Assembly (NCBI GenBank): GCA_964503755.1
Contig: CAZDBO010000002.1
Span: 261-64,260, forward strand
From: an uncultured Candidatus Saccharibacteria bacterium
GTDB taxonomy: Bacteria; Patescibacteriota; Dojkabacteria; JAOAGR01
Direction: 5' to 3'
Length of the DNA stretch: 64,000 bases
Shown: positions 1 through 63,630 of the stretch, in pieces
Numbering within the stretch: position 1 is the stretch's first letter
How the letters are laid out: each line of letters opens with the position of its first letter
Translations under genes and position numbers: made by a program
Notes under the pieces: generated by a model
Seen by the model: only the letters and a program-made list of their open reading frames with translations
Database searches by the model: none
What the model was told of the DNA's origin: nothing

Positions 1-29
1 GATTAAAATATTTATTATTAAATTTATAT

Positions 30-536
30 GTGAAGATAGAAAATTTTTTTGATTCTGTCTTATTCGAAATAAGATGTCTGGAAGTAGAGAGATTGACTGA
101 TTTGCATAAATTACTAAGGATTTTTGAAGAAAAATACGCGGAAGGACGCAGTATAAAAGAATACGTACGGATGATAGACCAAGAAAAAGATTTGTTGAAA
201 AAATCAGAGTTAGAGATGCAAGCATGTCAATATTTTTTTGATCTTTTGGGTAGTGAACGTTTTTTCTTTTATCAAAAAGGGATTTGTAATATGAGTGAGA
301 TTTATAGAAATCGTCGAATGAACTGCAGTGGGTTTTCTTTCATATTATATATTTTGCTTAATAGGTACCTAAAAGTAGAGCATTGGATAGTAGAAACATA
401 TTATCACTTTTCAAATGTTGTTAGGTTATCTAATGATTATCTGGCGTATTGCGATGGATTAGTTTCTCTTATCAAAGATTTGCGTAAAAATGAATATCTA
501 AGAAAAAGTAATCTAACTAAAAGTGTTATTTTGTAG
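30..536 (+). CDS. hypothetical protein (168 aa), no recognisable motif
   Basis: Intact ORF from the track at the window start, upstream of the decayed cas locus. No motif recognised. Confidence 0.3.
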   Translation: MKIENFFDSVLFEIRCLEVERLTDLHKLLRIFEEKYAEGRSIKEYVRMIDQEKDLLKKSELEMQACQYFFDLLGSERFFFYQKGICNMSEIYRNRRMNCSGFSFILYILLNRYLKVEHWIVETYYHFSNVVRLSNDYLAYCDGLVSLIKDLRKNEYLRKSNLTKSVIL

Positions 537-1201
537 ATCCCATACCAAATTCGACACTTGCATACTAGTTATCGATTGAAAGCAACAATTATCGAAACTA
601 TTTTTATGCATTTTTAAATGAATACAGATTGAAAAAACAATTAAATCTAAAAAAATTGATTTTTTTAACTAGAGAAACATTATGAGTTACACCGAATAGT
701 CCGTTGAGTATAATTAATTTGGTGATAACTAATCTAAAAAAGACTATTTTAGAAAAATATAAATTAAGTTTATCAAAAAAAGAAATAAAGATAATTGAAA
801 AATTTTATAAGTCTTGGATAAGAATTTCTATAAAAAGAAACTGGGGATATATGTTTATGTATAGATGTTGCGGGGTTTAGTCATTATTATCACTTAATTG
901 GTGATAAAGATAAAGCGTTTTATTATCCTAGTCTTGTGATGAATTATATAAATCTGGTATGACAAGCTGTACTGATGCATATTATCGTTACGAAGAAGAC
1001 AAAAAAGAAATGCTTGAATTTAGTATAAATTTTGTAAATAAACTAGTTAGAAAACCATTTTATAAAACTATTACATAGAAATGTGTGGATATTTTGAGAT
1101 AATTTAATCACCTTGCGTAAAAAACAAAAATACTCTAACATACATATTGGGACATGTGGTTATAAAAATAAGGTATTAGGTTTTGCCTGATACCGTGACT
1201 C

Positions 1202-1227: not shown

Positions 1228-1895
1228 CATTTTATGAATTTTCTGGATAGTAGTCTTTTACTATGTTTAATAGAAGTTTGAACCATTACATCTGGTAAGA
1301 TTCGGTCCTTGTTTGTATATATAATCTTAAAAGCACTATCATAGAATCGAAGTTCTTCAAATTGTTCAGTACCTGAGTTTTGAGGTGTTAGTCCAAGTTT
1401 TTCGTCGATAATCTGTATGAGATATGAGATTTCGGGATAGCGTACTATCCTACCAACATCATATGCTCTCATGACCTCAAGTATGTCATAACGACTAAAA
1501 TTACATTTATATTCTGGAAAAGGGCATCTACTGGCCCATAATACATGTAAAATTATGGCAATATAGATACGTGCGATTCTTTTGACTAGAATTTCAGAAT
1601 AATTATATGATTTAGATTGCTTTTCTCTAAGTACCAAATCACAAAGTATATTATTACCAATTGTACTCTTTATATCATACAAAAACAGATTGTCAGGTAA
1701 TTATTTAGGTGTTGTTCCATGTAACATTGGGAAACCGTATTCTCTAATACTATTTTCAACACAAAATATACTTGATTCAAAAGATGGATCAACTATTTGT
1801 TTGAATATTAAAAACATTTCAGCCGCTGTACGTATGAAATGAAAATATTTTGGAGACTTTCGATGGCTGAGTATGGATTTTCTGGCATAATAAGT
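1227..1895 (-). pseudogene. disrupted gene of unknown function (frameshift near 1700, two in-frame stops upstream)
   Basis: The track ORF 1227..1682 begins at TTG with a stop 6 codons upstream. Another minus frame continues 1704-1895 as MPENPYSAIESLQNIFISYVQRLKCF*YSNK*LIHLL.... Confidence 0.3.
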
Positions 1896-1973
1896 GTGTA
1901 TAATTACAAGCTATAAACTTGTTTTTGTAAAAAATTTTAAAATCGTATTAAATTTTTTATATAATTGAATATT

Positions 1974-4900
1974 ATGAAATTCAAAAACGTAAACACAAAA
2001 AATTTTGACTATCTAATAGCCCTAGATTTGGCCATTACATCAGTGGGTTAGGCGGTGATAGAGATAGACTAAGAAAACGCTGACGATGAAAAATATGATG
2101 TAAAAGGATTGATAGATGTGGGAGTGAGAGTCTGGGATAGTATTGAAGATGAGAAAGGCAATTTACCATTACACAAAAGAAGAGAAGCCAGAAGTCTCAG
2201 ACGAATAATAGACAGAAGGCAAAAAAGACTTAGAAAAATCAAAAATATTTTTATCTAGAACTATCCTAATGTATTTAAAGATAATGAATATTTTGAATCG
2301 CAAGAATATCTATCTACAGATCCCTACGTTGCAACAGTGAAAGGATTGGATGAGGCCTTGACTTTATCAGAGTTAGCTAGGGCAATATTGCACCTTGCAA
2401 AACGAAGAGGATTTAAGTCCAATGCTAAAGACGCTAAAAAATCTGAAGAGAGTAAAAGTGAAACCGGTTATAAAAGTGGCATACAAAAAACAGAAGAAAA
2501 ACTTTTGAGCGGTAATTATCGTACTATCGGAGAGATGCTTCTAAAAGATGAAATGTTTTCTGAACGAAAAAGAAATGAAGGTGAAAACTATATCTTTGGT
2601 GCAAAAAGAGAGATGATTTTGCAAGAGCTAAAAATGATTTTAGATAAACAGGTTGAACTTGGTGTAATAAATCGTGAAGTTGCAGATTAGCTCCATGGTA
2701 CGGTTGAATATCAAAGACCGTTTGCTACTTCAGAAAACATCAAAAAATTAGTAGGATACTGTGAAATATTTAAGGACGAACTTAGAGCACCTAAGTATGC
2801 TCCTAGTGTAGAATTTAGGTCTTTATGGGAAAAAATAAATAATTTAACATGGTAAGACAAAAGAGGCGATAAGTGGGAAAGCGGATATTTGACAGATGAT
2901 TTGAGGTAGAAATTGTTTTAGCTTGCTTTAGAAAAAAAGGAAATTACTTATTATGACATTAGAACAAGGGTATTAGGATTAAGTGACGAATATGAAATTT
3001 TCTTTAAATCATGTACATATTTTGATAAGGTAAAAAGCTCTAAAAAGAGTAAAAGCAAGAAATCAGAAGGCGAGTCACAAGTTGAAGTCGGACAAGAAAC
3101 TATACAAAATGATAAAGCGAAAAAATCAGAAGAAGATCAAGAACGATTGATACGTATACCCACAAAAAAGCTGAAAGTAGAAAATTTTTGCTCTGAAAGG
3201 ATATCATTTGTTAAAAAGTGTGAATTGCCAGAGAATAAATTTAGTTCACTTTTTGCTGAGCTTGATAAATATGATACTGCAGACAAATTGGTGGAGATAA
3301 TGAATTATTCATATACTGATGATGAACTCAAGCAGAATCTTGCTAATGCGGGTTTGGATGAATATTTTGAATATCTCAAAGAAATATATGCTGATTTTTC
3401 GGGTACTTCAAATCTAAGTATCAAAGCATGTAGAGAAATGTTACCTCTACTTAGGGATCAGGCACTCAAGTATAGTGAGGCAGTAGCACACATTAGATTA
3501 AACAATCCCCAAGAGGCAGGATCAAGATATGATCAATTGCCAGAGGTGGCATATGATGATATTCGTAACCCAGTAGTCCATAGAGTCATTGCACAAACAA
3601 AAAAAGTCATCAACGCACTTATTCAGAGATATGGAAGACCGAGTTTGATTCATATCGAACTTGCTAGAGAGATGAAATTACCAAAAGATAAACGAAGAAA
3701 ATTATCTATCCAAAATCGTGATCGTGAAAGTAAGAATAAATAAATCCAAGCAGAACTGGAGAGATTGGGTATACAAGTCAACGGTACAAACATTACAAAA
3801 TTTAAACTCTGGAAAGAATAGGATCACAAATGTGCCTATTCAGGACGTGAGATCACAGTTGATGATTTCATTGCGAGTACTGAGATAGATGATATTCTGC
3901 CATTTAGTCGCAGTCTTGATGACAGTATAAACAACAAATTACTGGTTTTTGCCCAAGAGAATCAGAACAAACGTGATAGAATACCTTTTGAATATTTTGG
4001 TCATGATACTGAGAGATGGGAACGTATGAAATAGATCTGGATGAATGTAATGAAACTTCATCCATCAAAACTTGCTAGGTTATTGACTGAAAGCTACACA
4101 CAAAGAGATCTAAATTCATTTTTACAAAGAGATTCAAATGATACTAAATATGCCTCTAGATTTATCAAAAATTATTTAGAAAACAATCTGCTATTTAAAG
4201 AAAGTAAAAAACTCAAAAGACGTGTTTATACCTTCCAAGGTTTGCTTACAAGTCTTCTTAGAAAAAGTTATGGACTAACAAGGATAGAGAAGAAAGTCTC
4301 AGACATCACGCCTTGGATGCGGTAGTGGCGGGTGTAGCAAATCAAAAAATGCTGATGAAATTTTGTGAATGGTATAAAATCAAAGAAAATAGACAGAAAG
4401 TATTGGATAAAAGCGTTGATCCCGAATCTATCAAATTTGCTCCTGAGCCATGGACAGATTTTAGAGATGATGTAAATATACGAATATTTAGGGATAATCC
4501 CGTTGAAGAACTTAGAGAAAAAGGAATATTGGATAAACATACGGTAAAGAATATACTAGATTTATACGTCCGCTTTTTGTCTCTAGGATGGCCAAATACA
4601 AGATTACTGGTGCTATACATGCAGAGACAATCAAGTCTATCTGTGAGATTAATGGAAAAGAGTACTTTATAAAAACGATTAGTATTACAGATCTAAAAAA
4701 ATCTAATTTTGAAAAAGATCTCAATTCAAAAGATCTAGAAGGTATGATCATCGCTGATCCTGAGACTATTAGGGTGCTTAGGGAGAGGCTAGAGGAATGT
4801 AATTGGGATATCAAGAAAGCATTTGAAGAGCCTATATACAAACCATCACGAAATTCAGAACGTAAAAATAGAATAAAAAGAATAAAAGTCGTGGACGGTC

Positions 4901-5374
4901 CAGCGGTAACTTATGTAACACTCAAAAGAGGTAAAGGGAAAGGTTATGCTGATAATCGTAGTATGGTACGTGTAGATATATTTAGAAAAAATGGTAAATA
5001 TTACTCAGTACCAGTATACGCTAGTTGGATAGAACGCTATGATCTACCTATACAATATACACCACTGAAAAATAAAAAACACGTTGATGATACACTTGAA
5101 TTTTGTTTTAGTCTGTATCCAAGGGAGTTAGTATATTTGAGTGATGGAGAATATAGTGAATATGTTTACTATGTTAGTATGAACTCTTCAACTGCAGGTG
5201 ATTATGTTTTTGTAACCGATGATTTAGGTAGATATACAAAAAATAAATTTTTAAATAATGATATACGTAGGGTTGGATATATACTTAAAAGCATTACCAC
5301 ATTAAACTATTTAAAAAAGAAATATGTTGACGTTTTAGGCTTTATCCATGATATTAAAAAATCGAGCGTAAGCC
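1974..5374 (+). pseudogene. cas9: type II-C cas9 pseudogene (Nme/Cje-like Cas9, about 1130 codons)
   Basis: All hallmark Cas9 segments are present in order: RuvC-I (1974-2048, ending LDLAITSVG at the TAG), the Arg-rich bridge helix, REC segments matching Nme Cas9, the IRNPVVHRVIAQTKKVINALIQRYGRPSLIHIELARE motif, the HNH domain and the C-terminal PAM-interacting domain. Frame 0 is kept from 1974 to about 4280 despite in-frame stops at 2049 TAG, 2070 TAA, 2256 TAG, 2691 TAG, 2853 TAA, 2907 TAG, 2919 TAG, 3741 TAA, 3819 TAG and 4032 TAG. Frameshifts follow near 4280 (frame 0 to 2) and near 4575 (frame 2 to 1). The HNH catalytic His is replaced by Asp. Confidence 0.8.
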
Positions 5375-6199
5375 ATTATTTTAGTGATTATGGGAAATTA
5401 AATATCAAAGATAAAAGACTTGTTTATACAAAAGACGATAAAGAGATAATAGATATACCAATCGATGATATATCCGCTATAGTGATAGAAAGTAGACAGA
5501 TGATTTTGACGTCTTATCCAATATCTATTGTGCTAGTCATGATATTTTGATCATATTCTGCGATGAAAAACATCTATCAAATGCGATAGCTATACCATTT
5601 CAAAGTTTTGGTCGCCAAAGACTCAGAGTAGAGAAGCAGATTTCTTTATCTTTACCATTCAAACAACAGTTATGGGCACGTATAGTCAGACAAAAGATTA
5701 TTAATCAGGCAAAATTATTAGATAAACTAAATACCGAAACATCAAAACAACTTTATGCTCTGGCCGATGATATCAAGTCTGGTGACAGTGATAATAAAGA
5801 AGGATTAGCATCTAAAATATATTTTAGGTCTTTGTTTGGCAAAAATTTTCTAGAGAAGATGATTCGCATGCGGTCAATAGTCTTTTAAATTATGCGTATA
5901 GTATAGTCAGAGGTTCTATCAGTCGTACTTTGGTGGCTCATGGTTTTATACCATCTTTAGGTATTTTTCATAAGAATCAATATAACAATTTTAACCTTAG
6001 TGAGGATCTGATAGAGCCGTATAGACCTATTATTGATAGTTATGTGATAGATTTATTGAATAAAGGGATGAATAATATCCAAAGTAAAGAAGTAAAATTT
6101 GAATTATTGAAAATATTCGAATGCAGAGTATTATATAGTGATAAAAAAGTTAATATAAAACAAAGTATTGATATATTGTGGATACACTTGTTATGAGTA
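5375..6199 (+). pseudogene. cas1: cas1 pseudogene (type II Cas1, two frameshifts)
   Basis: The N-terminus is read in frame 1, fused to the cas9 frame with no intervening stop. The IIFCDEKHL...NKEGLASKIYFRSLFGKNF segment is in frame 0 (5547-5888). The LNYAYSIVRGSISRTLVAHGFIPSLGIFHKNQYNNFNLSEDLIEPYRPIID segment is in frame 2 (5885-6199). Shifts sit near 5545, next to a duplicated-looking atgatattttgatcatatt, and near 5882 at a TTTT run. Confidence 0.7.
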
Positions 6200-6285
6200 T
6201 CAATGGGCAAGATCCCAAAATACTTTTATTACTAGAGTTGATATTCCTATAAAGCTCTATATTATAATTTTTGTAGTTTTAATTT

Positions 6286-6606
6286 ATGAGTAAGTGTATG
6301 AGGATACTTGTTTTATTTGATTTGCCAGTTGTTACTAAAAAACAACGTAAGATATATGCTCGATTTAGAAAAGCACTTATCAAAGATGGTTATGATATGA
6401 TTCAGTTTTCGGTCTACCAGCGTATCTGTAATGGGCTAGATATGGCAGACAAATATATGCAACGACTCGAGGAGTATGCACCAAAAAGAGGTGCTATAAG
6501 AGCTATGATACTTACTGAAAGACAATTGAAGTATATGTGTGTTATTACTGGTAAGACAAAACCAAAAGAAAAATTGATCAGTGATAATCAATGTGCGTTA
6601 TTTTAA
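6286..6606 (+). CDS. cas2: CRISPR-associated endoribonuclease Cas2
   Basis: Intact 106-aa ORF. The MRILVLFDLPVVTKKQRKIYARFRKALIKDGYDMIQFSVYQRIC sequence matches the Cas2 N-terminal pattern; the true start may be the internal ATG giving MRIL at 6298. Confidence 0.8.
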   Translation: MSKCMRILVLFDLPVVTKKQRKIYARFRKALIKDGYDMIQFSVYQRICNGLDMADKYMQRLEEYAPKRGAIRAMILTERQLKYMCVITGKTKPKEKLISDNQCALF

Positions 6607-6659
6607 TCAAATTTTTGTTGAGTTTATAATGTGAATTTTCTTATTGGGACAAACAAAAA

Positions 6660-6682
6660 GTTGTGGTAGAGTTTACCACAAC
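6660..6682. other. perfect 9-bp inverted repeat GTTGTGGTA-gagtt-TACCACAAC, 54 nt downstream of cas2
   Basis: Seen in sequence. No U-tract follows, so it is not a canonical terminator. It is the only repeat-like element where a CRISPR array or tracrRNA would be expected. Confidence 0.3.
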
Positions 6683-6858
6683 TTGGGAGATATGGGAATA
6701 AAAATAGGATAGAGACCCATGGGTTAGCTTATGAGTCTGTAAAATTATATTATATAAATACAAATTTAACAGAAACCAGTAGACAAACACATTCTTTGAT
6801 TATATTTGTATTTATAGTACAATTATGGGTTAATAAAATTTTTGCATGTTGTATAAGA

Positions 6859-7440
6859 ATGTTTTATGCGAGATCAATTCAACCTTATAATACATTAAAA
6901 TCCGTGCATAGGTTCGAGGCGGCATATCGCTTGGATTCAAAAGATATAGATAGGGATTTGCTTAAAATAATAGAAAAAACTAATATCGAGTATTTAATCA
7001 AAAATGCCACAAAAAAGAAAATTCCAAAACCAGAATTTTTATATCACGGATCACCTGTCAGTGGAATAAAAGTTTTAAAGCCATCAAGTCGAACACGACC
7101 GGGTGTATTGAAAAATAAAGTTTTTCGAGCAGTGTATGCCACAGATATACTTAGCTATGCCTGTGCGTTTGGATTTCCATGGTCAAATGGTGAAGGGTTT
7201 GAACTTATTTTCACAAACGATAAAGTTGAGCTCGGCGTGCCAAAACAATACAAGGATAGGATACAAAAACCACTTTTCGTATATGTTGTCAAGGGAGAAT
7301 ATTTTGAATTATTACCAGAAGCTGCACCAAAAGGACATAATTATTTTTCAAAAACACCAGTACCTGTAGAAAGAGTAACAAAATACAAAAGTGTAAAAGA
7401 TGCCCTACTAAAATTCGAATGTAAAATTTATTTCATTTAG
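6859..7440 (+). CDS. hypothetical protein with LYHGS motif; possible ADP-ribosyltransferase-fold (Tpt1/PARP-like) protein
   Basis: Track ORF 6796..7440, with a likely start at ATG 6859 (MFYARS). An EFLYHGSPVSG motif is followed by aromatic and acidic residues, as in H-Y-E ADP-ribosyltransferases and Tpt1/KptA. This is a weak, memory-based assignment. Confidence 0.3.
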   Translation: MFYARSIQPYNTLKSVHRFEAAYRLDSKDIDRDLLKIIEKTNIEYLIKNATKKKIPKPEFLYHGSPVSGIKVLKPSSRTRPGVLKNKVFRAVYATDILSYACAFGFPWSNGEGFELIFTNDKVELGVPKQYKDRIQKPLFVYVVKGEYFELLPEAAPKGHNYFSKTPVPVERVTKYKSVKDALLKFECKIYFI

Positions 7441-14469: not shown

Positions 14470-16775
14470 TATTATCATCTTCAGTTTGTACTGGGGTTGT
14501 GATTATTGTGTTGGTAGGTGTCATATCTCTATCTTCTGCATTTTCTGTAGGTGTGGATGTAGGTGTCTGAGTGATTTCTATATTTTACGTTGGTGTTGGA
14601 GTAAGAGTAACTGTTGGAGTAGGTGTGTTGGTACCTATACTATTTGCAATAATTTTAACCGAAGCTATTGCTACATCACCATCAGAATCTATTACTTTTC
14701 CAATACATATATATTCACCAGTATTTGGTATGTTTATATTGTTAGATGTAAATGTAGTAGATGTATTATTATTTGATGTTCCAGCACATGTTCCACTAAA
14801 TGCATAATTGTATGTGCATTACCAGATATTGTTTGAGAGATGACTATTCTGAATGCTGTATTAATATCTATATACACTATGCCATCCATATTCGATGCAG
14901 GAGATAAAGCATATAAAACAATTAGAGGATTAGTGTCATTTGTTGGTGTTGGAGTTGGTTTTGGAGTCGGAGTTAAGGCTGGACTTGGAGTTGGAGTTGA
15001 AGTTGGTGATGGCATAGTATTGATTACTATGTTTTTATTTCCGCCAAGCGAATTTGCACTACCAGAATTTGGTAATGTTAGTATCGCGTTATTTAGTACT
15101 GAATCTTTTATGCTACCACCAGCGAGAGATAAAACATGTACATTTGTATAATCTAAATCTGCAGTATTATCTCCTGATGCTATTGTATATGTAAATGTCA
15201 AAGTATTGCTACCAGAACCAGAAGAATATGTTGCACTACCTCCACTGTTTAAGGTTAGTGTAGGTGTATCTGTTACGTTTACATTTTCGTTAAATACAAC
15301 TTAAATTGATATTGTAGCTCCAACTTCGTATGTACCATTAGTAGCTGATGATGTGACATTTGTTATTATTGGAGTACAATCTAGAGTATCTCCGTTTATT
15401 GTCCAATTATTTGGTGCATTTATTAAAGTGTTTCTAGCTGCTACAGCATTACATGACATATCAGCGACATTACTTATATCCCAAGACCCTATATTTTGAT
15501 TAAAAGATGTGGCATCAGAAAACATTAAATACATATCGTTAACATTACTAGTGTCCCAAGAACTGGTTGGTTGATTAAAAGATATGGCTCCATCAAACAT
15601 AAAGCTCATATTCGTCACACTAGATGTATCCCATGATCCAATTGGCTGATTAAACGATGTAGCATCCTCAAACATACTATTCATATCTGTAACATTACTA
15701 GTATTCCAAGAACCGATTGGTTGGTTAAAAAAAGTTGCACCCGCAAACATACCTATCATGACAGTTACATTACTAGTATTCCAGGAACCAATATTCTGAT
15801 TAAATGACACTGCACTTTACTTTGAAACATCCATGCCATATTATTAACACTACTAGTGTTCCAAGACCCTATTGGCTGATTAAAAGATATGGCTCCCGCA
15901 AACATACCAGACATATTAGTAGCATTACTGGTATCCCAAGATACTAATGGCTGATTAAATGACAGTGCATTAATAAACATACCGGACATATGAGTTACAC
16001 TACTAGTGTCCCAAGATCCAATTGGTTGATTAAAGGATAGTGCACCAGAAAACATGTCAGACATATCAGTAACATTGCTAGTATCCCATCCACTAATATC
16101 TTGATTAAATGTTTGAGCATTTTTAAACATGTCAGCCATATCAGTTACTTACTAGTATCTCAATTGCCAATATCCTGATTGAAATTTGAAGCATTCATGT
16201 AAACCCCAGTCATATCATTGATATTTGTTGTGTCCCATGAATTCATTGCAGCATTAGTTGTCAAAGAAGTTGCTACATAAAACATTTGATACATATTTGT
16301 AACATTAGACAAGTTAGGTACATCTGTAGCATTCAACTCCACATTTTCGCATCCGGGAAAAGCTCTTGACATACTCTCCCAAGCTATAGATGATCCCCAT
16401 TGATCAATAGATAATAGTTTTAACCTGTCACCTGCATTGTTGAAGAATATTCTTGGAAACGTTCCAGTTATCCATATCTGATAAGTTCCAGGTGATGAAT
16501 AAGTGCATGTTACATTGCCGGTTTGATTTACATGTTCATTTGTACTATCACCATCAGTCTACATTGTAGCTGTATCCTCCACCTGCTGTGGTAGGTATAG
16601 TAAACTGGTTATTAGCACTGGCACCTGGATTATCTGTTCGAACCGTGATCTTGAATGCATTTGGATTTGCCTATGCTACATTTTCACCACTGTGAAAGTA
16701 AAATATGGCTGATAAACCGATGAATGATAAAATAAAAAGGATCAGCTTAAAATTAAAATTGATCTTAGATATATA
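14470..16775 (-). pseudogene. DUF285 (PARCEL / Mycoplasma-type repeat) surface protein, fragmented
   Basis: About 9 tandem ~26-aa repeats of the form [25 protein letters not shown] appear across ORFs 15301..15810, 15765..16139 and 16160..16372, which lie in three frames. ORF 14734..15201 (same gene, further downstream) carries a Thr/Pro linker TPTPSPALTPTPKPTPTPT. A signal-peptide-like N-terminus near 16770 lacks an ATG, and in-frame stops occur in the 16380-16700 part. Confidence 0.6.
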
Positions 16776-43115: not shown

Positions 43116-43454
43116 ATGAAAGCAAATATACACCCAAAAACATATACTATAAATATTACTTGTTCATCATGTGGTAGTACTTATACAGTAGAATCTACTC
43201 TCGAACATGATTATACAGTTGGTACTTGCGCCAATTGTCATCCTGTTTATCGAGGTGAAAAAGTAGATCAAGGAACACAAAAAGATGCACGAGTATCTGC
43301 ATTTACCGAGAAAATGACAAAGGCCAAAGAGCTACAAGAAAAAATTAAGCAAATCCAAGAAGCAAAGCAGCAGAGATTAGCAAACAAAGTTGGTGTCATT
43401 GCACGTGAAAAGCCATCACTTAGTGATATTGTTGCTAAAAAATCGAAAAAATAG
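43116..43454 (+). CDS. rpmE: 50S ribosomal protein L31 (Zn-ribbon type) with K/Q-rich C-terminal extension
   Basis: MKANIHPK followed by CSSCGS...CANCHP, with four Cys residues. Confidence 0.8.
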   Translation: MKANIHPKTYTINITCSSCGSTYTVESTLEHDYTVGTCANCHPVYRGEKVDQGTQKDARVSAFTEKMTKAKELQEKIKQIQEAKQQRLANKVGVIAREKPSLSDIVAKKSKK

Positions 43455-43469
43455 AATTATAAAAAATAT

Positions 43470-44558
43470 ATGAATTTTGAAGATATTGATATATCTTCTT
43501 TGCGTAGTAAGTTTGATGAATTAAATTCTAAAATATTAGATATTACAGATTTTAATTCTCAAGAGTCAAAATCTATTATCTCAGAATACAATAGATTAAA
43601 AGAAACTATTGAAACTTACGAAGAAATTTTGAACATACAGAGGCAAATTGAACAAAATGAAGAACTAAAAGACGATCCTGAACTAGCAGATCTTGCTTCT
43701 ACTGAAAATAAAAATTTATATCCTAAACTAGAAAAATTAAAACAAAATGTACAACTTTTACTTCTACCACCAGATCCAAATGATGAAAAAAATGTTATTT
43801 TAGAGATACGAGCAGGTACAGGTGGTGAAGAGGCTGCGCTTTTTGCTGCTGATCTTTTTCGTATGTACAATAGATATGCTAATTCGAAGGGTTGGACTGT
43901 ACAGGTACTTAGCATATCAGAATCCGACACTGGTGGAATAAAAGAAATAATAGCAAAAATAATTGGCAAAGGCGCTTATAAAATGCTCAAAGGTGAATCA
44001 GGGGTACACAGAGTACAAAGAATACCTGTCACTGAGAGTAATGGACGAATTCACACTTCTGCTGCTAGTGTAGTAGTAATGCCAGAAATTGATGATATCG
44101 AGATTGTCATAAAACCAGAGGACATACGTATTGATGTGTTTAGGTCTGCAGGACATGGCGGACAGAGCGTTAATACTACTGATTCAGCAGTACGCATCAC
44201 ACACCTACCCACTGGTCTTATAGTTACATGTCAGGACACCAAAGATCAGCATAAAAACAAAGAATCAGCAATGTCAGTGCTTAGAGCCAGACTATATCAA
44301 ATGGAACTTGAAAAACAACAAGGCGAAATATCAAATATCAGAAAATCAGCAATAAAAACAGGGGATAGATCTGATAAAATAAAAACTTATAATTTTCCAC
44401 AAAATAGACTAACAGATCACCGAATAAATAAAACTTGGTATGACTTGGATAATATAATGGAAGGTAATTTAGATAATGTAATCAGAGAATACTTTGTTCG
44501 AAAAACAAAAATTAATAATGAAAAAATTGCAATCAACTGTAATAATTATATTAAATAA
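43470..44558 (+). CDS. prfA: peptide chain release factor 1
   Basis: The GGQ motif is present ([22 protein letters not shown]). A PVT tripeptide in [14 protein letters not shown] is a PxT-type RF1 decoding motif. Confidence 0.9.
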
Positions 44559-44947: not shown

Positions 44948-46213
44948 TCAAAAACGCCTACCTGTTTGACGATAACGCCAATATGTGTTTAGGGTTTCTA
45001 GAACCCAATCGGACTCTGGAACTTTTCCTACGTGTACGGACAAAATTAATTTATAATATTCATTGATACCAATATTTCTCAATTTTTCATGCCCAATATT
45101 TCTTTCAGCAATTGCAAGAAAATTTATGAAAAAAGCTAGAAATCCACCTGGCCATGCTCTAAATGCAGCATATTTATGTTCCCATACTTCATCAGATACA
45201 ACATCACTTTGACAATAAACACCTTCTAATAAATTACCAGGATTATTTGGTGATCCACCACGCTTATTATTTGGTGGTTCATTAGGATTTCCTATCCAGT
45301 TCGAGTCATTACCCATATTGCTTTCATGTTGAAATACGACTATAGCCAAAAGAGGATAAGTAATGAGACAATATATACATATAAAGGAAATACTAGATAG
45401 CTAGCACTACCGATTACATTTTTTAGTCATAAACTTAATGTAATGCATATACAAGTTTAATTAAAACGTCCCTTGTTCTATTGCATCCCAATTTTTTTGT
45501 CTTACTGCCTCAACAAATCTTTCTTTATACTTTAAAAAATCTTCTATTGCTTTCTTTTCTTCCGAAGTCAAATCACGATGTCGTCTACCGTAAAAATGTA
45601 CTGCAAGTATATTTCTATATACATCCGCCTGCGGAGTTTCAGCAAGAATAAGTCCTTCTTTTATCAAGACATGTGCTATTGCAATATGATTTGCTAAACC
45701 GCTTGCCATTCCTGCCGTCCAAGTTTCAAATGCTGAATATTTTCTTCAATTTGGTGGGGTGGTAGTTTCGTTAGTACAATAAGCTCCCTCCATAATGTTA
45801 AAAGGATTTTTCTTGATTCCTTGCCAATTTGGATCTCGCTTAATCCCTTGCTGTCCTGTTTCATGTTTAAATAGCACTGCAGCCATCAAAGGATCAGCAA
45901 TACGATTATCGTACATTTCCATTATTAGTTGAACAACATTTTCGGTTTCTCCATCATCACCAATTGCACTGTTAATAAAAAAACGAAGGAGAGCTTTCTC
46001 GATAACACCACGATCTATATCATATGTTTTTGTTAATCTAAATACTTCCTTGACATGTCCTCCTCCAAATTCGGGTTGAGCTCCAGCTGCCGCACATATA
46101 TTGTTTATAGGGACTATTAAAGTATTATCTGCGCCTTGTGTAATATTTGTTGTTCTATCATCACTTACACAAGCAGATAATAGAAACTGAACACCAGCAA
46201 ACGCGAACCGCAA
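44948..46213 (-). pseudogene. lipoprotein of unknown function with two in-frame stops
   Basis: The N-terminus MRFAFAGVQFLLSAC contains a lipobox. Three track ORFs (45746..46213, 45461..45709, 44948..45349) lie in the same frame, separated by TGA at 45746-45748 and TAA at 45461-45463. The region is visibly less AT-rich than its flanks. Confidence 0.45.
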
Positions 46214-46293
46214 AAAACGACGCCTACTTATTTTTTTTGATTATATATGCTTTAATAATTTATATTATAAATATTATAAAATAATAAATTATT

Positions 46294-61115: not shown

Positions 61116-61368
61116 ATCAATAATATCTTATACAAATCGATAGAATATTCAAGCACCTAATCGAAGTAGTTTTGAAATTTGTAAATCGCAGAATGATAGT
61201 ATTTGATTCCTTCTTTTTTTAAATAAAAGTTAAATCATACTATGTCCACCAATCTATACTGAAACACATAAATTATCTCAGTATTACTATATTTTGTCAC
61301 TAAATTTTCTGATTTTGGATAAGTATGCCCATGCAAAAGATATTTTGGTTGACATTTTTGAACATATT

Positions 61369-61806
61369 CTAATAATCCCATAAACCTTGATTTGCCAATG
61401 AATCAGGCTCATCATTTATACCGTAAGGTGGACAATGCACAAACATTACATCAACTCTAGGAAAATTCTTTAACATCTCCGAAACCTCTTCTTGTGTATA
61501 CATTTTTGCATAGCGATTGTGCTTGTACCTAACACTGCCCTCAAAACCTCCAAAAGTAAACCCATTAATTTCAAATACCTTAAGATGCATATTCATAATT
61601 CCAAGATTTTCCAAATAGCCAACAGTACAATGATTACCATATACGCCAAGTTTTGGTATATCATTTATCGATGCCAATTCGGCAATATCATACTCTTCTA
61701 AATCTCCCAATGTACATATCAAATCAACCTTATTTTTAGACAAAATGGATTTGATACTTTCTCTTGGAGGTCGATCAGAGATGGCTAGGACTTTCATTGT
61801 TAACAT
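61369..61806 (-). CDS. metallophosphoesterase (YfcE/MJ0936-like)
   Basis: KVLAISD, LICTLGDLEE, GNHC and VHCPPYG match calcineurin-like phosphoesterase motifs. Confidence 0.6.
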   Translation of the reverse strand: MLTMKVLAISDRPPRESIKSILSKNKVDLICTLGDLEEYDIAELASINDIPKLGVYGNHCTVGYLENLGIMNMHLKVFEINGFTFGGFEGSVRYKHNRYAKMYTQEEVSEMLKNFPRVDVMFVHCPPYGINDEPDSLANQGLWDY

Positions 61807-62344
61807 AATAGTAAAAATTTATTTTCTCGAAAATACTCAATACAGATAATCATACACAATTCAGTAAACTAGACAAATCTATAATATTGAAAATTTTAAA
61901 TAATCGTGTCACTCGATTTTGAAAATAAGGAATGATTTAATAATTTGTTTAATAAATAATAATAAAATCTCTAAAATTTAACAAATATTGGTTTCATCTT
62001 TATTTCAATTATTATTTTTTATTATCTTATTCTGCTTAACATATTTCTTTCTTCCAACTAACTATGTTGTTGTTTTGTTTTATATTGCACAGATATATAT
62101 CATTTAACTCAACAATATATATAATAATATATTTAACTTTAACTTTAATTTATAATAAAATGTATTCGTTCAATGTATCTAAATCATTTAGACATAAGTT
62201 TAATTTAAAAATTTTATGTCCTTTAGAATTGATAATATTACTATCGAAACTCCATATACACCAAATATCAGTAAAATTACTATTGACCGATTAAGTTTGA
62301 ATGCATTATTATATTATTGTTGAAAGCACCAATTAAAAATTTTA

Positions 62345-63630
62345 TTAGGTGATCAATCATCAAATACTGCAGGGCTATTACGTAAGAGAGTACTTGAAGC
62401 TATCGGAACATTGCTACATTTATTAACAACTGCTGACTACCGTGACCTTTCGCTTTTAGATATAACAACAAAAATTGGTGCTAAAATGGACTTAAATGGA
62501 AATTATATTATATATGATGCTGAAAATCCAATGTTATGGATGGATGAAGAAATAGGAATATAAAATTCGAAAGATATGATACTTTATATGCATCATGATG
62601 CTGATAGACCTCATATTATTCAAAATTATGATGGCCATCCTGTTTTGTGGGAACAAAATGGTATATTAAGCAAGATCGATGAATGGCATCTTGGAAAAGG
62701 TCCTTTAGATTATTTTTCTACTGCTGGTAGATATCCTTTTTCAACATATGGTTTTATTGAAATTAATAATACAGAATAAATTTCGTATATTAGTGCATTT
62801 GGTGAATTCATAAATGCACCTCCAGGAATAATAGCTCTGGTCGGTCCGAAGGATCAGAATGAGAATGAACAACCCACATTTATTACACTAAGAAACGATC
62901 AAACCAATTACAAAGCAGCCACCGAATTAACACAACAAATAGTATTAGCAGAAATAAACTCGGCCTCAACTGTAGCTGATCTAATAGGTAACACAAATGA
63001 TATAGCAGCTCACGCTATAAGAAGAGCAATTACAGATTCGTTACAATATCGACATATCGGCGATTATTCTCAAGTTATAGACCTTTTAACAGGAGGAGTG
63101 CTACCATTCAGTACTGTTAGTTCACTATTCGCTGAAAGAATACCTGTAATCCTAGAAAAAATTCATACTCAAGGTAAACAGATTAATAATACATCAAAAT
63201 ATTTCTGACGTATAAATCTCACATCAGACAAACGTACTAAATTACATGATAAAGACAGTTTAAACGATCAGGAGAGATACATGATCGTACCAGCTGGTAA
63301 AACTTTAATATCAGATTTTCAGCACGTGGACAAGTTGTGGCATTTTCACGAATGCCGTATGCAGAAAATGTTGTAAAAATACTTAATAAATTACTTGGTA
63401 GAATACCTATGCCAGTAATTCAGATAACATTCAATATGGAATTTCCAGAAAACTTAAATCGCGCACTCAGAGAAAAGTGGAGAGAATTTGCAAGTTCAGT
63501 AGCAATACCAAGTAGTTTAGAATATGAATACGTTGAAAGAATAATAAGGGCATGGAATACAAAACCTACACCTATATTTGCTAGTATAACTCGATTTCCA
63601 ATAAATGTAATAATTCGTTTTGTGATTTAG
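62345..63630 (+). pseudogene. unknown ~430-codon gene with three in-frame stops and one frameshift
   Basis: A single frame is readable from 62345 through TAA at 62560, TAA at 62777 and TGA at 63206 to 63376. It then shifts to the frame of ORF 63337..63630. The region is less AT-rich than its surroundings. Confidence 0.35.

Follow-up and report, generated by a model that had tools for sequence, protein, structure and literature searches.

Cas9 proteins of type II-C CRISPR (clustered regularly interspaced short palindromic repeats)-Cas loci are built in the order RuvC-I, REC, RuvC-II, HNH, RuvC-III and PI (the domain interacting with the protospacer adjacent motif, PAM). Their genes are followed by cas1 and cas2, without csn2 or cas4, and such loci have a trans-activating CRISPR RNA (tracrRNA)-like element upstream and a repeat downstream. 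We analysed 64,000 nucleotides of DNA (hereafter the window, meaning this whole stretch) from contig CAZDBO010000002.1 of assembly GCA_964503755.1, derived from an uncultured bacterium, and found a locus that has all of these properties in common with type II-C systems. It differs from them in that its cas9 carries ten nonsense codons, at least six frameshifting deletions and a His to Asp exchange in the HNH domain, while its cas1 is broken and fused to cas9 and its array amounts to a single repeat; the system therefore cannot function. Our preferred reading, to which we assign a probability of roughly 0.85, is that positions 1974-5377 are what is left of a type II-C cas9, no longer functional and part of a CRISPR-Cas locus in decay, in the small, AT-rich genome of a Candidatus Dojkabacteria-like bacterium, a member of the candidate phyla radiation (CPR). 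The locus consists of the following parts:

1974-5377, plus strand: cas9 pseudogene, type II-C, about 1135 ancestral codons, recognised by homology to an intact ortholog (P0001, on contig L001), by Pfam and by structure matches

5378-6250, plus strand: cas1 pseudogene, recognised by Pfam Cas_Cas1 on the stitched translation and by ortholog alignment

6298-6606, plus strand: cas2, an intact open reading frame (ORF) of 102 codons matching Pfam CRISPR_Cas2

6659-6711, plus strand: orphan CRISPR repeat region, in agreement with the last bases of L001

1119-1227, plus strand: tracrRNA-like element, recognised by position and similarity, near-identical to the equivalent intergenic stretch of L001

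The intact ortholog, P0001, is a protein of 1150 residues encoded on Logan contig L001 and present in identical form on contig JAOAGR010000007.1 of a Candidatus Dojkabacteria metagenome-assembled genome (MAG). The stitched translation of the window gene shows 78% amino-acid identity to it at 100% coverage. At the nucleotide level the window is 80.6% identical to L001, and the two are syntenic over the upstream gene, the intergenic element, cas9, cas1, cas2 and the start of the repeat. Pfam detects HNH_4, RuvC_III and Cas9_RuvC in the stitched cas9 translation. The nearest solved structures are Cas9 chains of about 1080-1095 residues (E about 1e-158), which we take to be those of the type II-C proteins GeoCas9 and Nme1Cas9. 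Full-length Cas9 homology and RuvC and HNH domains in the Cas9 order are present in the stitched protein; an uninterrupted ORF with intact catalytic residues is not, due to the ten stops, the frameshifts and the changed HNH His. Compared with its intact, syntenic ortholog the gene has disabling lesions that recur in an independent assembly, which makes it a pseudogene, and the identity proposed by the first-pass annotation of this DNA, that of a decayed cas9, is thus upheld by both the 78% identity and the lesions. The search for closer relatives returned, among genome contigs, only the MAG of the ortholog itself, a Dojkabacteria cas9 of 53% identity and one unrelated match; a metagenome scan added only a fragment of 38 residues, and no hit of the protein searches was closer than 78% identity.

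Frame 0 starts with the ATG at 1974, ends with the stop at 4323-4325 and spans 784 codons with exactly ten internal stops (eleven including the terminal one at 4323), whereas each of the other five frames over 1974-4325 contains 29-106 stops. Because of this difference, frame 0 of this interval is clearly a decayed coding frame. All lesions were mapped by codon alignment of the window with P0001/L001, and the stops stand as follows:

2049-4034, plus strand: span of the ten stops, from the ortholog codon alignment; Logan contig L007 repeats seven of the ten

2049, plus strand: TAG, ortholog residue Trp (TGG to TAG, in the motif SxGWA)

2070, plus strand: TAA, ortholog residue Glu (GAA to TAA)

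2256, plus strand: TAG, ortholog residue Gln

2688, plus strand: TAG, ortholog residue Gln

2853, plus strand: TAA, ortholog residue Val (GTA to TAA, two changes needed)

2907, plus strand: TAG, ortholog residue Gln

2919, plus strand: TAG, ortholog residue Glu (GAG to TAG)

3741, plus strand: TAA, ortholog residue Glu (GAA to TAA)

3819, plus strand: TAG, ortholog residue Gln (CAG to TAG, in the HNH-proximal motif LWKEQ)

4032, plus strand: TAG, ortholog residue Gln

The first-pass annotation had listed the same ten stops. All of them are real, but one was misplaced, at 2691 instead of 2688. The codon alignment also agrees with its statement that stops have replaced a conserved Trp and a Gln of the HNH region. 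Altogether, Gln was lost five times, Glu three times, and Trp and Val once each (n = 10), and the stops divide into seven TAG and three TAA, with no TGA. Every one of the ten arose by change of G/C to A/T, which suits the earlier proposal of transitions under AT-biased mutation; that proposal went too far with respect to the kind of change, since only six are transitions, three are G to T transversions in Glu codons, and GTA to TAA is a double change.

Nonsense codons are nevertheless not the only type of damage. The decay had been described as almost purely nonsense, with no indels from 1974 to about 4280; the codon alignment contradicts both statements, as it places one-base deletions at 3164, 3185, 3213 and 4277. 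In total, cas9 has at least six one-base deletions, mostly in A/T runs, in addition to a 34-bp deletion, and three more one-base deletions fall in cas1. The main lesions of cas9 other than stops are these:

3164-3213, plus strand: three 1-nt deletions that jointly restore the frame, with about 16 residues of the REC lobe replaced

3891-3893, plus strand: exchange of the catalytic HNH His for Asp (CAT to GAT, EIDHILPF to EIDDILPF)

4277-4278, plus strand: 1-nt deletion (CTAAAC to CTAAC), the first uncompensated frameshift, just 5´ of the RuvC-III motif HHALDA; also in Logan contig L005

4540-4541, plus strand: 1-nt deletion, the second uncompensated frameshift; also in L005

5355-5378, plus strand: 1-nt deletion at about 5355 and 34-bp deletion at 5378, from the ortholog codon alignment

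Frame 0 looks preserved because the three neighbouring deletions at 3164 (A7 to A6), 3185 (T6 to T5) and 3213 (A6 to A5), all of them in A/T homopolymers, add up to -3. When gaps are allowed, this stretch of the window reads KKAESRK-FALKGYHL-KKC, compared with KKAENRKFFALKGYHLLKNC in the ortholog; ungapped frame 0 gives KKLKVENFCSERISFVKKC, an unrelated peptide. Another Cas9 homolog, P0002, likewise has RFFSLKGYHMLK across the stretch, and therefore the frame of the ortholog is ancestral and the three deletions are derived. A compensating -1/+1 pair at 2503/2513 is possible only, and an insertion of three bases lies at 3055-3063. Further downstream, the uncompensated deletion at 5355 shifts the ancestral cas9 frame, and with the 34-bp deletion at 5378 the stop codon of cas9 and the start codon of cas1 were lost, so that the two genes are fused. 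In 120 Cas9 homologs, the column of the exchanged HNH His shows conservation of at least 95%. A Gly of RuvC-I is replaced by Ala as well.

The remaining parts of the locus complete the picture. In cas1, which is free of nonsense substitutions, 1-nt deletions occur at 5526, 5841 and 6178. Both cas1 and cas2 lie directly 3´ of cas9, and the neighbouring ORFs match neither Pfam nor PHROG, that is, neither csn2 nor cas4 accompanies them. No CRISPR array was found downstream of cas2: a repeat-family search of the window yielded no family, and with up to 3 mismatches allowed, the 64 kb contain no second copy of the repeat. In L001, the contig end falls within this repeat, presumably where its array lies. 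In the tracrRNA-like element, the anti-repeat-like stretch 1142-1175 and the repeat region at 6678-6711 share 76% identity, and a hairpin with a T-run occupies 1202-1227; in comparison with L001, the terminator stem shows one compensated pair (G-C to A-T) and one mismatch. The interval 1119-1227 has no match in Rfam. Judged by the orientation of the element, the array would have been transcribed from the minus strand. Some 740 nt between this element and cas9 are devoid of a counterpart in L001. The CRISPR-Cas locus in the window is dead.

We suggest the following course of events. The CRISPR-Cas system may first have ceased to be useful to its host. AT-biased point mutation and slippage in homopolymers would then have disabled cas9, presumably recently enough for the remaining codons still to look conserved. 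Relative to the divergence from the ortholog the inactivation is recent, because 78-81% identity persists and missense changes are about equally frequent on both branches, being barely more numerous on that of the pseudogene; the first-pass annotation had come to the same opinion. The ratio of nonsynonymous to synonymous substitution rates (dN/dS) between cas9 and the ortholog is 0.07, with dS of about 1.2 and thus saturated, and it follows that nearly all divergence predates the inactivation.

Apart from a modest, unexplained excess of stops, we regard this as a case of ordinary gene decay. Uniform neutral decay fits these data imperfectly. Several results weigh against the course of events outlined above. 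Amino-acid differences were polarised using as outgroup either P0002 or the 53%-identity Dojkabacteria Cas9 encoded on contig L003. Over the first 687 codons (the N part), the pseudogene branch acquired 23-29 missense changes and the intact branch 18-26. The nonsense-to-missense ratio expected from the codons of the ortholog is 0.08-0.155, depending on mutation spectrum, so that about 65-120 neutral missense changes would normally be expected to accompany ten stops. In the N part, codon positions 1-2 show 70 changes from G/C to A/T versus 56 in the reverse direction, and only 60 versus 56 when the ten stop changes are subtracted. The likelihood-ratio test for excess of nonsense gives P values from 1e-4 (P0002 as outgroup, mild bias) to 0.04-0.07 (L003 as outgroup, spectrum restricted to G/C-to-A/T changes). 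Further, all ten stops fall into the first 687 codons (2.06 kb) and none into the next approximately 450 codons of cas9 (the C part) or into cas1. Since the C part and cas1 represent about 40% of targets, this clustering has P of 0.002-0.007 when cas1 is included and 0.02-0.03 for cas9 alone. Finally, TAG makes up seven of the ten stops, compared with about 29% expected (P about 0.01). The tests of nonsense excess, clustering and TAG bias were made post hoc, on a locus picked for looking odd, and we regard all three deviations as suggestive only. In the C part, missense changes number 14-20 on the pseudogene branch and 17-19 on the intact one. If only columns with at least 80% conservation are considered, the window alone has five missense changes, two nonsense changes and one frameshift site in the N part, versus two changes in P0001; the corresponding numbers for the C part are two and three.

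These deviations could mean that stops accumulated faster than neutral expectation. One route to this would be selection that shortened a costly or toxic Cas9 remnant step by step, with each truncation closer to the 5´ end. Alternatively, the N-terminal two thirds of the protein may have died first, while the C-terminal RuvC-III/PAM-interacting part together with Cas1-Cas2 stayed under selection for a while longer. Apart from the excess of nonsense over missense, such scenarios would account for the absence of stops from the C part and cas1, every stop being located 5´ of 4035, and for the polarised changes at codon positions 1-2 on the window branch, where G/C to A/T exceeds the reverse by 17:6 in the N part (stops included) and the bias is absent from the C part (7:8). 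An ATG at 4041, right after the last stop, would suit them too. However, with the closest outgroup and the G/C-to-A/T-only spectrum the excess is confined to the weak end of the above range, and the spacing of stops is unlike that of a pure process in which each new stop arises upstream of the previous one (P about 0.01, a hand estimate). No convincing ribosome-binding site is seen by eye 5´ of 4041, the C part and cas1 are frameshifted too, the TAG bias is left unexplained, and the locus was selected for its unusual look. We consider selected or staged loss of this kind improbable, though less so than the alternatives discussed below; if true, it would mean that a CPR bacterium took its CRISPR-Cas9 system apart in stages and under selection.

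Other sources of the observed pattern were tried and rejected. A 5-methylcytosine deamination hotspot at CWG, which might produce TAG from CAG, does not stand out (C to T at 13 of 120 CAG/CTG sites versus 80 of 929 elsewhere, positions 1-2). The substitution table reveals no clear asymmetry of C to T versus G to A, as would be expected from coding-strand (transcription-associated) mutation. A recombinant origin of the 3´ part is not indicated either, as the N part, the C part and cas1 have diverged from the ortholog to a similar degree at third positions (33-37%). On two unrelated metagenome contigs, L008 (1094-1936) and L009 (2392-3171), we noticed stand-alone ORFs of 259-280 residues whose only homology is to the N-terminal approximately 280 residues of Cas9 and which may likewise be remnants of truncated cas9 genes. 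They come from organisms with 43% and 58% GC and are uninformative.

In-frame stops in an otherwise conserved frame raise the question of genetic code. Known reassignments comprise TAG to Gln in some phages and TGA to Gly in the CPR-related Gracilibacteria and Absconditabacteria. The first-pass annotation had named TAG or TAA at sense positions of intact genes as the sign of recoding, and none is found in the 30 long ORFs of the window. These ORFs, including the genes for ArgRS, iPGM, GlmS, GlmM, ParB, L31 and RF1, are uninterrupted under code 11 and terminate with TAA (20), TAG (6) or TGA (4). The prfA gene for RF1 (43470-44558) is intact, with a score of 478 bits against the cutoff of 400 (NCBIfam equivalog) and with the PVT and GGQ motifs. 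Given the normal ends of the intact ORFs and the intact RF1, TAG and TAA act as stops in the usual way; cas9 is decayed, not recoded, and genome-wide recoding is rejected. The gene rpmE (L31), which ends with TAG, and prfA (together 43116-44558, plus strand) share one reading frame, with 15 nt between them. They were viewed as a read-through candidate, which was dismissed: these are simply two adjacent genes.

A narrower version of the same idea is that an amino acid is, or was in the past, inserted at TAG and perhaps also at TAA, by a supE-like tRNA-Gln(CUA) or in a recoded mobile element, and that the stops were tolerated while cas9 still worked. The bias towards TAG and the location of five of the seven TAG at Gln positions (eight of the ten stops at Gln or Glu) would be in line with suppression, and so would the scarcity of missense changes beside the stops, the three clustered deletions that restore the frame, and the behaviour of an automatic gene caller that passed TAG 2688 on L007. 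Yet RF1 is intact, 26 of the 30 intact ORFs end with TAA or TAG, internal stops are absent from all 30, and no suppressor tRNA (CUA/UUA) is among the three tRNAs of the window (Pro-CGG, Ser-UGA, Ala-GGC). Moreover, one TAG sits at a near-invariant Trp of RuvC-I and one TAA at a conserved Val, the HNH domain lacks its catalytic His, the frameshifts at 4277, 4540 and 5355 are uncompensated, the start of cas1 is deleted and the array is gone. A weak suppressor could not read ten stops at useful yield. Past suppression is thus unlikely, to a degree that we give it very little weight. The gene call mentioned, stored for L007 at 1-480 (window 2376-2855), crosses TAG 2688 and ends at TAA 2853; the caller apparently picked a model with TAG as sense codon. 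Such a gene-calling artefact could mislead pipelines for code prediction.

As for the reality of the lesions, L007 (run SRR11582145) equals window 2376-4135 at 100% identity, and L005 from the same run equals 4137-7078 at 100% except one 4-bp indel. This second assembly repeats seven of the ten stops, the triple deletion and all later frameshifts. The window may share reads with SRR11582145, so the agreement demonstrates independence of assembly, not of data; because L007 and L005 reproduce window 2376-7078, the lesions are not an artefact of one assembler. The sole difference in 4.7 kb, an ACAT indel (window 6252, L005 2116-2119) at the end of cas1 or in the cas1-cas2 spacer, is evidence of strain-level, ongoing indel polymorphism. 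It is hardly credible that errors of sequencing or assembly, or the merging of several strains into a chimeric consensus, produced the stops and frameshifts: several deletions do sit in homopolymers, and the breaks of Logan contigs at 2375/2376 and 4136/4137 as well as the 4-bp difference at 6252 hint at strain heterogeneity, but a second assembler arrived at the same sequence save one indel, stops created by substitution are an atypical error mode, and dozens of adjacent genes are intact.

Gene decay in the window is not restricted to the CRISPR-Cas locus, as other genes are affected:

1-1100, plus strand: upstream gene, ortholog of a 585-residue L001 protein of unknown function; heavily frameshifted pseudogene with several indels of 1-2 nt and TAG at 566

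1230-1910, minus strand: candidate pseudogene of 69 and 157 codons with in-frame TAA at 1701-1703; no Pfam or PHROG match

14737-16139, minus strand: gene of a DUF285 repeat protein, with a frameshift near 15790 and in-frame TAA at 15301-15303

45464-46240, minus strand: possible pseudogene, a frame of 164 and 94 codons split by in-frame TGA

61235-61806, minus strand: possible pseudogene, two overlapping ORFs resembling one gene split by a frameshift

62324-63205, plus strand: candidate pseudogene, segments of 79, 71 and 142 codons in the same frame with two in-frame TAA between them; no homologs in a search of 5.8 billion proteins, in Pfam or in PHROGs

Because the upstream gene and these other genes carry indels, in-frame stops or frameshifts, gene erosion seems to be general in this genome. 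The GC content of the window is 30.2%, versus 32-33% in the genome of the ortholog.

We see the main value of this locus in a clean negative. In a CPR genome, numerous in-frame TAG and TAA codons might have pointed to a novel genetic code, which is not the case here. The locus further shows that a rare CRISPR-Cas9 system has been lost from a Dojkabacteria-like lineage, and an intact ortholog can be used for comparison. Were the excess and clustering of stops to hold in more genomes, the dismantling of bacterial defence genes would seem to be shaped by selection as well as by mutation; a single locus cannot establish this.

When compared with known cases of stop-codon reassignment, the window resembles them in that its TAGs lie mostly at Gln positions of the ortholog. 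It differs from them in the presence of RF1, in the use of TAG and TAA as ends of intact genes, in essential genes free of internal stops, and in the frameshifts of cas9. The window also resembles the erosion of pseudogenes by AT-biased mutation and homopolymer slippage in reduced or symbiotic genomes (PMC522871, PMC6054270): it likewise mixes premature stops with small deletions, changes G/C to A/T, and has more deletions than insertions. Its approximately 15 disablements per 1000 residues of cas9 lie inside the range of 10-28 reported by a survey of prokaryotic pseudogenes (PMC522871). On the other hand, this density is high for a remnant about 80% identical to its ortholog, and the stops, rich in TAG, are concentrated in the 5´ 60% of the gene. 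Few deletions in homopolymers were found among previously studied pseudogenes (PMC6054270), whereas at least four of the nine deletions in cas9 and cas1 of the window occurred in A/T runs.

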